The notes below the pieces were generated by a model that was given only the letters and a program-made list of their open reading frames with translations, ran no database searches and was not told the origin of the DNA. A DNA stretch of 64,000 nt. Origin: Candidatus Gastranaerophilales bacterium. Its GTDB lineage: Bacteria > Cyanobacteriota > Vampirovibrionia > Gastranaerophilales > CAJFVJ01. How positions within the stretch are numbered: position 1 is the first letter of the stretch; every line of letters begins with the position of its first letter. Positions 12,947 through 48,951 of the stretch are shown here, in pieces. The DNA lies in NCBI GenBank assembly GCA_944323485.1, contig CALUSR010000001.1:386437-450436 (forward strand), written 5' to 3'. The translations under genes and the position numbers were made by a program.

Positions 12947-13018
12947 GGGTGTGTGGCGCAGTGGTAGCGCAGTTGACTCTTAATCAATTGGTCGTGGGTT
13001 CGAATCCCACCGCACCCA
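12947..13018 (+). tRNA. tRNA-Lys (anticodon CTT), CCA not encoded
   Basis: Acceptor stem GGGTGTG/CGCACCC, D-arm GCGC-AGTGGTA-GCGC, anticodon stem GTTGA/TCAAT with loop CT-CTT-AA, T-loop GGTTCGAATCC. Confidence 0.95.
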
Positions 13019-15428: not shown

Positions 15429-16745
15429 ATGGAACAGACATCAATTTTTACAAATGAATCGAACCAACCGCTACCATCCCGCCTCAGACCGAGAAATTTG
15501 GATGAATTTGTCGGGCAGACCCATCTGATTGGTGAGGGAAAAATTTTGCGAAAATTGATAGAAGAAGACAAGATTTCATCACTCATATTCTGGGGACCTC
15601 CCGGGGTAGGGAAGACAACTCTTGCAAGCATTATTGCAAATAAGACAAACTCTTCGTTTATTAATTTCTCGGCAGTAACAAGCGGTATAAAAGAAATCAA
15701 AGAAGTGATGACAAAAGCCGAGCAAGCCCGCAAAATGGGTGAGAAGACGATTGTTTTTGTGGATGAAATACATCGTTTCAACAAAGCACAGCAGGATGCG
15801 TTTTTGCCGTTTGTTGAAAAGGGGAGTATTATTCTTATCGGGGCAACCACCGAAAATCCGTCTTTTGAGGTTAATGGTGCTTTGCTTTCACGATGTAAAG
15901 TTTTTGTTTTGCAAGGGTTGAAAACGGAAGATTTGGTTTCTCTTTTGAAAAGAGCAATCACTGATAAAAGAGGATTTGGAAGCCAAAGAGTAAATATAAC
16001 TGATGACCAGCTTGAAGCAGTGGCAAAGTTTGCAAACGGTGATGCGAGAAATGCTCTTTCAACACTTGAGATGGTTGTTCTGAACGGTGATGTCAACAGC
16101 AACGGTGAAATTACGGTTACTGATGATACGCTTGAGCAGTGTATATCAAAGAAGTCGCTTTTGTATGATAAAAACGGCGAAGAACACTACAATATTATTT
16201 CAGCCCTTCATAAATCAATGAGAAATTCAGACCCTGATGCTGCTGTTTACTGGCTTGCAAGAATGCTCGAGGCAGGAGAAGACCCTTTGTATGTGGCAAG
16301 GAGAATTACGCGATTTGCAAGCGAGGATGTAGGACTGGCTGACCCTCATGCTCTTGAGATTGCCGTTGCCGCATATCAGGCATGTCATTTTATCGGAATG
16401 CCTGAGTGTTCGGTGCATCTTACACAGGCTGTTGTTTATATGTCGCTTGCTCCAAAGTCGAATGCGCTGTATGTTGCATATGAAACAGCCAAAAAAGATG
16501 CCATAAAAGAACTTGCAGAGCCTGTGCCGCTTGTAATAAGGAACGCTCCGACAAAATTGATGAAGGAGTTAAACTATGGCAAGGGTTACCAGTATGCACA
16601 TGATACAAAAGAAAAATTGACAAATATGCAGTGTCTTCCTGAGTCGCTGCATGGGAAGGAATATTACCGCCCGACAGAACAGGGGCTTGAGGCAAAATAT
16701 AAAGCTAAGCTTGAAAAAATCAAAGAATGGAAAAAGTCGCACTGA
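15429..16745 (+). CDS. rarA: Replication-associated recombination protein A (AAA+ ATPase)
   Basis: RLRPRNLDEFVGQ, WGPPGVGKTT, FVDEIHRFNKAQQD, GATTENPSF, SALHKSMRNSDPDAA, YQYAHD. Confidence 0.95.
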   Translation: MEQTSIFTNESNQPLPSRLRPRNLDEFVGQTHLIGEGKILRKLIEEDKISSLIFWGPPGVGKTTLASIIANKTNSSFINFSAVTSGIKEIKEVMTKAEQARKMGEKTIVFVDEIHRFNKAQQDAFLPFVEKGSIILIGATTENPSFEVNGALLSRCKVFVLQGLKTEDLVSLLKRAITDKRGFGSQRVNITDDQLEAVAKFANGDARNALSTLEMVVLNGDVNSNGEITVTDDTLEQCISKKSLLYDKNGEEHYNIISALHKSMRNSDPDAAVYWLARMLEAGEDPLYVARRITRFASEDVGLADPHALEIAVAAYQACHFIGMPECSVHLTQAVVYMSLAPKSNALYVAYETAKKDAIKELAEPVPLVIRNAPTKLMKELNYGKGYQYAHDTKEKLTNMQCLPESLHGKEYYRPTEQGLEAKYKAKLEKIKEWKKSH

Positions 16746-16813
16746 TTGATTCAGATATATCTGTATTTTATGAATTTGTAAGCTTGCGTGATAAAAAAAC
16801 AGTGTGAATATAA

Positions 16814-16963
16814 GGAACTTATATAGCCAATTTCACAGATAATATTAGAAGTCCGTCATTCTGAGGGCTTTAGCCCGAAGAATCCTTTTTGTTCAGATAC
16901 TTCGCTAACGCTCAGTATGACGTTGTTTGGGAAATTTTTGACGGAATTTGCTATATAAATTCC
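16814..16963. mobile_element. MITE copy 1: 150 bp, 21-bp TIRs, 8-bp TSD GAATATAA (16806-16813 / 16964-16971)
   Basis: TIRs GGAACTTATATAGCCAATTTC and GGAATTTGCTATATAAATTCC (18/21 inverted match); perfect flanking 8-bp direct repeat; 139/150 identical to the copy at 48647. Confidence 0.9.
16854..16921. repeat. CGTC-tagged REP-like inverted doublet inside the MITE
   Basis: CGTCATTCTGAGGGCTTTAGCCCGAAGAATC ... GATACTTCGCTAACGCTCAGTATGACG; the two units are inverted homologues, each with a small internal hairpin. Confidence 0.75.
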
Positions 16964-17041
16964 GAATATAAGATTTTTACAAATACCGTAATAAATAATA
17001 TAATAAACTAAAAACTCTGTTATACAAAAATAATTCGGATA

Positions 17042-17819
17042 ATGATTATGAAAAATTTGTTTTATACGGAAAAGATTGAAGGGACTCACAGAGTTATTTG
17101 TCTTTGCGGGATAAAGCTGAAATTCAGACTTTCGCAAAGGGAGCGTGAAAAAAAAAGAGGGAACAAGTTTATTTTGCATAAAGAAAACGGAGAGATTGTC
17201 GAGTTTCCCCAAATTGACGGTCTTGATGTTGTGTTCAAAGGACAAAATTGTACTGTAGAAATTTTTGAACCCTGCAATTTCAAAAAAGAGAGCTGGCATC
17301 AATCGAGGATTGAAATGGAAGGAGAAAATCATTTTGCACGAATAAAAGGCTCAAAGTATGGTATAGCAAGGCTTGAGGCGAATTTTCGGGGGGGGGGGAA
17401 CATCCCTTTTAATTGGAGAAAATTTTTATCTTACGGGTCATGTTCGTTTTGATATTGAGAGTGAAGGTTGCTGCTCCATAAAAATCGGTGATGATTGTAT
17501 GTTTGCAGATGGAATAAATTTTTTGGGAACTGATAGGCATACAATTTATGATATTTCTGATAGAAAAAATATAAACCTGACTAAATACGGAATAACTGTT
17601 GGCAACCACGTATGGGTTGCACGCAATGTTGTTGTATTGAAAGATGTCACAATACCTGATAACACGGTTGTTGGTATCGGGAGTATTGTTACCAAATCGT
17701 TTGATGAGGAGAATACAATTATCGGAGGGGTTCCGGCAAAAATTTTGAGAAGGGGAGTGAACTGGGACAGACGCAAACAGACCGAATATCTCAAATCACT
17801 TGAAGACACCGGATTATAA
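17042..17819 (+). pseudogene. Hexapeptide-repeat (LbH) sugar O-acetyltransferase split by a G11 tract (frameshifted; candidate phase-variable gene)
   Basis: ORFs 17042-17452 and 17373-17819 join into one 258-aa frame if G11 (17388-17398) is G10. C-terminal IKIGDDCMFA, ITVGNHVWVA, IPDNTVVGIGSIVTK, GGVPAKI are LbH acetyltransferase motifs. Confidence 0.85.
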
Positions 17820-47466: not shown

Positions 47467-48576
47467 TTAGACCCCTGTGAAAGTACGGGTATTTTTGACA
47501 CCGAGTTTTTCAAGACCTTTTTTCATTAAGTACAGTGTCAGAAAACTCAAAACAAAAACTGTCACAAGTCTTGATGCTGAGATGAAAAATACGGCAACAC
47601 CGTTGAGCAAGCCGTCAACAGGTATTGAAGGAGCGAGTTTGAATATATAGTTGAAGAGGAATACATAATACCAGTGAACAAAGAACAGTCCGAAGCTGTA
47701 TTTGGCAGTTATATCCATAAATTTGTTGAATTTTGTCATGGATTTGATTTTTTCATCATAATGTTTGAGATAAGCAAGAGCGATGACAGTGAGCAGCAGT
47801 TTTGAAGCTGTACCGTTCATAACATTGTATTTTATTCCGAGGAAGACATCGAAGGCTGAAACCAGCACCATCAGGAATATCAGCAGATATCTTTTGTCAT
47901 AGAATTTATCAATCATCTCACCGTATTTTGAAAAATACATTCCGAGAACATAGCAGGAAGCAAAATGAACAAATCCCATGAGAACGTATTTGAGATAAGC
48001 TATATACCTTCCAGTATAATCAAGGTTCATTACCCAGTCAGGTTCTATATCTCCTCTTGGAACGAAGATTGTAACAAGAAGCAGGAGAGGAAGAAGTTTG
48101 TAGAGAATATTTTTTCTTTCGAGATACAAAAGCAGCGCACTCAAAATGAAAAATATGGTAATCATAGGCATAAACCATGTAGGAACGTTATGGACACGCC
48201 CTGTGGTGATAAAGATGCCGATTTGAGCAAATATATTCATTCCGTCGAAAGGGTTTTTATATATGTTAGGAATTGTAAGACAGGCGATAATACCGGGGAT
48301 TGATGTTATGAAGTAAGGAATTATGACGTTTTGCCATTTCTTTTTCAAATAATTTTTGTATTCGAACTTGTATGATAGATACTGGAACAGATAACCGGCA
48401 ATGAAGACAAACAAAGCTGTGCCGCCTGCAAAAATTTCAAAAGAGATGTATTTTTCGATTGAACCTGCTTCCCCAAACTGCATTGTATGAGCCATCAGGA
48501 TAAGGATGATTGCAATCCCCCTGAATACATTAATGTAGTTTAGCATAGGCTTTTTTTTGATATTTGTATCATTCAT
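47467..48576 (-). CDS. Acyltransferase family 3 (membrane O-acyltransferase, OafA-like)
   Basis: INVFRGIAI, LFVFIAGY, WFMP, YSFGLFFVHW; start at MNDTN after a GAGGAGG RBS. Confidence 0.88.
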   Translation of the reverse strand: MNDTNIKKKPMLNYINVFRGIAIILILMAHTMQFGEAGSIEKYISFEIFAGGTALFVFIAGYLFQYLSYKFEYKNYLKKKWQNVIIPYFITSIPGIIACLTIPNIYKNPFDGMNIFAQIGIFITTGRVHNVPTWFMPMITIFFILSALLLYLERKNILYKLLPLLLLVTIFVPRGDIEPDWVMNLDYTGRYIAYLKYVLMGFVHFASCYVLGMYFSKYGEMIDKFYDKRYLLIFLMVLVSAFDVFLGIKYNVMNGTASKLLLTVIALAYLKHYDEKIKSMTKFNKFMDITAKYSFGLFFVHWYYVFLFNYIFKLAPSIPVDGLLNGVAVFFISASRLVTVFVLSFLTLYLMKKGLEKLGVKNTRTFTGV

Positions 48577-48646
48577 GGGGGTGCCTCCTCTTTTTGTATG
48601 TATAAAATTTATCATAAACAAATATGGCAGACCATACAAACTTTTG

Positions 48647-48796
48647 GGAATTTATATAACAAATTCCACAGATAATATTAAAAGTCCGTCATTCTGAGGG
48701 CTTTAGCAAGAAGAATCCTTTTTGTTCAGATACTTCGCTAACGCTCAGTATGACGTTGTTTTGGAAATTTTTGGCGGAATTTGCTATATAAGTTTC
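48647..48796. mobile_element. MITE copy 2: 150 bp, 21-bp TIRs, 8-bp TSD AACTTTTG (48639-48646 / 48797-48804)
   Basis: TIRs GGAATTTATATAACAAATTCC and GGAATTTGCTATATAAGTTTC (18/21); perfect 8-bp flanking duplication different from that of copy 1. Confidence 0.9.
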
Positions 48797-48951
48797 AACT
48801 TTTGTTGCCGGAAAAATTTACAGTCTTGCAGAGCTTTAGGCTGAAGAAAATAGTTGCAAACAGATGGATTGACACACATATTGTGTGTTTGGATTTGACT
48901 TTGGCCGTTTATTTAAATAAAGTTATAGATATACGAAGTTTGTTCTGAGGA

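Follow-up and report, generated by a model that had tools for sequence, protein, structure and literature searches.

Two copies of a 150-bp element

The stretch of DNA analysed here (64,000 nucleotides, referred to as the window) stems from a gut melainabacterium of the Gastranaerophilales type with about 36% G+C, and proteins identical to those encoded in it are found on numerous contigs from human-gut metagenomes. An element of 150 bp makes up the only long repeat family of the window and is present as copy A at 16814-16963 and as copy B at 48647-48796. Copy A is located 69 bp 3′ of the stop codon of rarA/mgsA (15429-16745) and upstream of a small gene, copy B between two divergent genes, one for an Acyl_transf_3 protein (47467-48576, minus strand) and one for a Methyltransf_24 protein. 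The sole open reading frame crossing copy A is a spurious antisense one of 158 aa.

Both copies superpose without gaps at 139 of 150 identical positions, and each is enclosed by its own perfect 8-bp direct repeat, GAATATAA in copy A and AACTTTTG in copy B, in exact agreement, in coordinates as well as in sequence, with what the first-pass annotation had described. The proposed consensus of the terminal inverted repeat (TIR), GGAATTTATATAGCAAATTCC, differs from the four element ends by 3, 0, 1 and 2 mismatches and had no match in 100 shuffles of the window, while the left and right TIR within each copy agree at 18 of 21 positions. Each TIR had further been described as a palindrome in itself. 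This holds for the consensus, GGAATTT-N7-AAATTCC being self-complementary, and GGAACTT, the commonest left end of the family, still pairs at 6 of 7 positions. The individual parts of the two copies are as follows.

Copy A
16806-16813, no strand: left target-site duplication GAATATAA
16814-16834, plus strand: left TIR GGAACTTATATAGCCAATTTC, 3 mismatches to the consensus
16835-16853, plus strand: left spacer arm, A+T-rich, homologous between subfamilies
16854-16885, plus strand: left CGTC-tagged REP unit (CGTC, stem ATTCTGAGGGC, loop TTTA, GCCCGAAGAAT, tail CC)
16886-16895, plus strand: linker TTTTTGTTCA joining the two REP units
16896-16922, minus strand: right CGTC-tagged REP unit, inverted (reverse complement CGTC-ATACTGAGC-GTTA-GCGAAGTAT-C)
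16923-16942, plus strand: right spacer arm
16943-16963, minus strand: right TIR, exact consensus on the minus strand with 0 mismatches
16964-16971, no strand: right target-site duplication GAATATAA

Copy B
48639-48646, no strand: left target-site duplication AACTTTTG
48647-48667, plus strand: left TIR GGAATTTATATAACAAATTCC, 1 mismatch
48687-48718, plus strand: left CGTC-tagged REP unit with decayed 3′ stem (GCAAGAAGAAT)
48729-48755, minus strand: right CGTC-tagged REP unit, inverted
48776-48796, minus strand: right TIR, 2 mismatches
48797-48804, no strand: right target-site duplication AACTTTTG

Just past the right duplication of copy A, a near-consensus promoter of the sigma-70 type (TTTACA-17-TATAAT, 11/12; 16976-17004) is directed towards a gene with a poly-G tract at 17388-17398 (ORFs 17042-17452 and 17373-17819). 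The tract comprises 8, 9, 9, 10, 11 and 12 G in six same-species contigs and 11 G in the window; an intact ORF of 256 aa is present only in the contig with 10 G, and two ORFs are found in the window and in the five other contigs. This locus immediately downstream of copy A looks like either a phase-variable gene or a sequencing-prone homopolymer. The sole Rfam match in the window is a tRNA gene at 12947-13018 (RF00005, 75.5 bits).

The end of the window, from about 51966 to 64000, is a defence island of low G+C content (29-33%) with a type I restriction-modification system and further genes.

53909-55627: HsdM, type I restriction-modification
57507-58790: HsdS, type I restriction-modification
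59729-62716: HsdR, type I restriction-modification
55596-56660: Fic/RhuM protein
DUF2971 protein
62745-63902: AbiH

In Candidatus Adamsella avium and in some same-species strains the position of the island is taken instead by a tRNA-like gene, a third copy of the element (duplication CAAAAATA) and prmA.

Architecture of the element and its REP-dimer core

Overall, the element forms a long palindrome, albeit an imperfect one. Its halves each comprise a TIR of 21 bp, a spacer that is A+T-rich and about 19 bp long, and a single hairpin unit. The two hairpin units are arranged head-to-head about a 10-bp linker with their tags outermost. A single long hairpin, which a palindromic MITE would be expected to form, is predicted for the DNA (-22.7 kcal/mol, z = -4.25) and likewise for the RNA (-44.8 kcal/mol, z = -4.5).

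By class definition, the central 70 bp are a head-to-head dimer of CGTC-tagged REP hairpins. These repeats carry an unpaired tag at one end, CGTC, often altered to TGTC and in some cases CCTC, and occur mostly as head-to-head dimers. Their stems of 8-9 bp almost always start with A-T pairs at positions 1 and 2, the loops measure 4-5 nt, and the tails are short and C-rich (Di Nocera 2013, PMC3733652). In the subfamily of the window (sf1) both units carry the tag CGTC and represent a variant of the class, with an AT start, the loops TTTA and GTTA, and stems of 9-11 bp that harbor a tandem G.A mismatch in both units. The units of a second subfamily (sf2), TGTC-ACCCTGAA-CTTGT-TTCAGGGT and TGTC-ATTCCGAA-CTTGT-TTCGGAAT, are tagged by TGTC and agree exactly with the definition (ATTCCGAA/TTCGGAAT, loop CTTGT). 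Strings matching the sf1 or sf2 units were not found in the supplements of PMC3733652. The first-pass annotation had called the element a new family, which stands for the TIR arms, as these have neither a match nor a description in the literature searched, and does not stand for the inner 70 bp, which belong to a known class.

Hairpin units of this kind are not specific to the Gastranaerophilales-type lineage. The 25-mer GTCAYCCTGAACTTGTTTCAGGRTC has 46 exact matches in IMG/VR contigs of widely differing G+C content, usually with an inverted partner 40-60 bp away, and the pattern GTCATTCTGAG-N4-20-CGAAGAATC is found at 120 loci or more. Like units are located on Treponema and sphingomonad plasmids, and free REP dimers devoid of TIRs occur at other Gastranaerophilales loci (L055-L057), where inspection by eye revealed no flanking duplication. 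The IMG/VR hairpins GTCAYCCTGAACTTGTTTCAGGRTC and GTCATTCTGAG...CGAAGAATC (L066-L190) are conserved base for base and usually form inverted pairs with variable spacers. A flanking duplication was seen neither at these loci nor at the plasmid matches H1-H8, and no protein family is tied to the hairpins in the viral contigs, in which only phage structural genes recurred (uninformative).

Distribution of the family and target duplications

A scan of the exact TIR pattern over species-representative genomes yielded 32 loci in about 14 genomes. These comprise nine human "Gastranaerophilales bacterium" MAGs, the chicken MAG of Ca. Adamsella avium (16 loci with at least 19 elements in a 2.1-Mb assembly), a mouse "Vampirovibrio sp." MAG, Ca. 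Scatousia excrementipullorum (Bacteria incertae sedis in NCBI), a roe-deer rumen MAG and one "uncultured bacterium". All genomes that have a placement, by title or by NCBI lineage, belong to the Gastranaerophilales/Melainabacteria group. Four further TIR loci, all MITE-like, are present on metagenome contigs. The element was found neither by the TIR scan of viral contigs nor by a whole-element similarity search of plasmids; taken together, the scans of metagenome contigs, viral contigs and plasmids returned MITEs only, plus one chance match inside a phage gene.

A total of 28 elements, located at about 26 distinct sites in MAGs from human, chicken, mouse and roe deer, are bounded on both sides by the family TIR (consensus GGAAyTTATATAGCAAATTCC). 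The 8-bp repeats flanking these elements are perfect in 14 of the 28 and agree at 7 or more of the 8 positions in 20. In a control in which the left and right flanks compared were taken from different elements (n = 756), no perfect repeat was obtained and only 7 pairs reached 7/8 or better. Shifting the register (three registers, 84 comparisons) likewise gave no perfect repeat and a single one at 7/8. Most imperfect duplications deviate by one substitution or by a one-base slippage in an A or T run, and the duplicated 8-mers consist of 83% A+T. Possession of an own 8-bp duplication at many sites is direct evidence of repeated, independent insertions by a staggered cut. The proposal of a non-autonomous TIR element with independent insertions and an 8-bp target duplication, made from the two copies of the window, is thereby upheld over 28 elements.

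All 25 sf1 copies are intergenic. Their orientation relative to the flanking genes is close to random, with the upstream gene running in the same direction in 9 cases and in the opposite direction in 14.

The family comprises several subfamilies with unrelated cores, namely the 150-bp sf1, the sf2 of about 150 bp and forms of 287, 313 and 487 bp, all of which have the TIR and the 8-bp duplication in common. This points to the TIR as the part required for movement. The constant TIR fits recognition by a trans-acting enzyme, with the core being exchangeable. In sf1 and sf2 alike, the hairpin unit starts with GTCA at 40-41 nt from the element end. At one locus (L023, 5729-6010) an sf2 element with the duplication TTTTTTGG/TTTTTTGT and the end of a truncated sf1 element are exactly 8 bp apart; apparently, one element has inserted right beside the terminus of another.

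Age of the insertions

Ca. Adamsella avium, placed in the Cyanobacteriota/Melainabacteria group by NCBI, has two 8-kb loci that share 90% and 94% DNA identity with the window. The sites of copy A and copy B (sites A and B) are filled in every same-species contig sampled (about 16) and also in Ca. Adamsella avium (loci L035 and L033). Both insertions of the window predate the split from Ca. Adamsella avium. At site A, the identity between the window and Ca. Adamsella avium is 89% for the element and 90% for the whole locus. Orthologous filling and these similar identities indicate that the insertions are old and have evolved in a roughly neutral manner. No empty site was recovered from the rarA homologues (89-92% identity) and the acyltransferase homologues (73-80% identity), since in more distant relatives the neighbouring genes differ and there is no orthologous site.

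The left arm of copy A (16828-16884) exists as two alleles among strains, with 11 differences within 57 bp, as compared to about 26 differences in the remaining 7.3 kb; the right arm is identical between the alleles. Both left-arm alleles carry derived changes with respect to the Ca. Adamsella avium orthologue. They likely originate from gene conversion by other copies.

Mobilization of the element and alternative explanations

We interpret the element as a MITE, a non-autonomous transposable element with TIRs, that belongs to gut Melainabacteria (Gastranaerophilales). Together with the mechanism proposed below, we hold this reading at a probability of about 80%. The window contains no transposase, as the first-pass annotation had stated and as judged from the Pfam tables of same-species contigs, covering about 5.4-26.7 kb and 37.4-58.6 kb, and, for the other large ORFs, from Pfam scans. 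Neither a TIR-bounded ORF nor a multi-copy ORF was detected, including ORFs next to seemingly unpaired TIRs, in Gastranaerophilales loci that add up to about 390 kb, and the metagenome, viral and plasmid searches did not yield a TIR-bounded transposase. As no source of transposase was found, the elements of this lineage are perhaps no longer mobile.

In the proposed mechanism a transposase supplied in trans would bind the TIRs. Most likely it would be of the DDE type, as suggested by the fixed length of the duplication. It would cut the target with a stagger of 8 bp, and repair of the staggered ends would give rise to the duplication. An 8-bp duplication and ends starting with GG are features of several IS families, among them IS1595, IS256, ISL3 and IS6. 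The duplication and the GG ends of the element are compatible with these families, of which IS1595 and IS256 had been put forward in the first-pass annotation; this may serve only as a lead.

The nature of the core and of the ends also allows for a different enzyme, in that the element could be a REP/REPIN-type or "TIRtron"-derived TIR repeat, moved as single-stranded DNA by an HUH tyrosine transposase (RAYT/TIRYT) rather than a MITE of the DDE type. With a core that is a head-to-head REP dimer and with TIRs that are hairpins themselves, the element resembles HUH substrates more than typical DDE ends. In addition, families of self-complementary TIR repeats that flank tyrosine-transposase genes are known, as are REP dimers inside longer palindromes, the "empty" palindrome not having been found for two of three such examples (PMC3733652). 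Contrary to such a transposition, the elements are flanked by a duplication of fixed length and variable sequence, and the tag is CGTC instead of GTAG. A Y1 transposase is absent from all Pfam gene tables examined, and the TIR-less REP dimers of related genomes show, by eye, no duplication at their flanks. Transposition of the IS200/IS605 type and of REPs proceeds without duplication at a fixed target of 4-5 nt, which is not seen here. The features of REPIN/RAYT systems (a GTAG tag, a RAYT gene flanked by repeats, no target duplication) are not those of the element, and we consider an HUH-driven origin very unlikely.

Movement could also be secondary to a selected function of the element as a cis-regulatory or RNA element, for instance as a small RNA, a terminator or a hairpin that stabilises mRNA. 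Such a role would be in line with the strong predicted RNA fold, with CCTTTTTGTT directly following the left REP hairpin, with the position of copy A shortly past the rarA stop codon, and with two inter-arm pairs that each show a single compensatory double change. On the other hand, no Rfam match to the element was obtained even at E-values up to 10, a weak match to a miRNA (19.8 bits, as compared to a gathering score of 211) being the only one seen, and the RNAalifold covariation term of +0.29 for 14 copies amounts to none, with three pairs showing a single double change each. No terminator was called at copy A or within either element. Furthermore, the orientation towards neighbouring genes is nearly random, and orthologous copies have diverged at the same pace as the sequence around them. 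Thus there is no evidence of host use of the element from Rfam, covariation, terminator prediction or orientation, and we give a selected RNA function next to no weight. Two candidate motifs were also rejected: no promoter was called at the TIR motif TGCTATATA, and the motif CUGAG...CGAAG, considered as a hammerhead or k-turn, lacks the hammerhead core nucleotides upon inspection. Chance similarity can be dismissed, as can a segmental duplication on the local scale whose flanking repeats would be a coincidence, in view of dozens of copies over many genomes, each with its own duplication, and of the shuffles devoid of any match.

Within the MITE interpretation, the REP dimer was probably taken up as cargo by an ancestral TIR scaffold, and subfamilies have probably exchanged such dimers at one constant position. 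Taken further, the occurrence of different REP dimers at the same position within shared TIR arms would mean that they insert site-specifically into the scaffold. The TIR element would thus constitute a vehicle for CGTC-tagged REP dimers, which are spread by a DDE-type transposase. We regard this extension as speculative and rather improbable; if true, the TIR scaffold is a concrete and testable route for the dissemination of REPs.

Relation to known repeats and implications

In general, bacterial MITEs are non-coding, 70-300 bp in length and bounded by TIRs of 15-30 bp, with a duplication of fixed length (PMC3733652). The 150-bp element shares its size class, the absence of coding sequence, the TIRs and the fixed-length duplication with Nezha of cyanobacteria, Correia/NEMIS of Neisseria, RUP of pneumococcus and ERIC, and it likewise occupies intergenic sites in many dispersed copies and folds into a long hairpin. 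Unlike these named MITEs, its TIR has no match outside Gastranaerophilales-type genomes. It further differs from them in that each TIR is nearly palindromic, in the REP-dimer core and in the 8-bp duplication; Correia elements duplicate TA. To our knowledge, the 150-bp element has no cognate IS.

With the CGTC-tagged REPs, which include dRS3 of Neisseria and RPE-4 and RPE-6 of Rickettsia (Di Nocera, De Gregorio and Rocco 2013, BMC Genomics 14:522), the core has the tag, the A-T start of the stem, the loops, the tail and the dimeric arrangement in common. Differences are observed in the stems, which in sf1 measure 9-11 bp and contain the tandem G.A mismatch as compared to 8-9 bp in the CGTC REPs, and in the surroundings of the dimer, as its placement within 40-bp TIR arms and 8-bp duplications is not reported for CGTC REPs in PMC3733652. 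The hosts listed there (Proteobacteria, Chlorobi, Bacteroidetes, Spirochaetes and Thermotogae, five phyla) do not include Cyanobacteria/Melainabacteria, and CGTC REPs are said to "apparently lack a dedicated transposase" (PMC3733652).

The literature search for published sequence strings matching the element returned primers only, and no paper in the literature searched joins MITEs with Melainabacteria. The element represents a genuine MITE family that is not described in the literature and libraries searched.

The general understanding of MITEs is unchanged. For a gut lineage that is uncultured and poorly studied, the element adds a repeat family that can lead to broken or confused metagenome assemblies and that provides markers of strain and lineage history. 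Moreover, the CGTC-tagged REPs are extended to the Cyanobacteria/Melainabacteria group, and their packaging in a TIR element with target duplications bears on the question of how CGTC REPs move.
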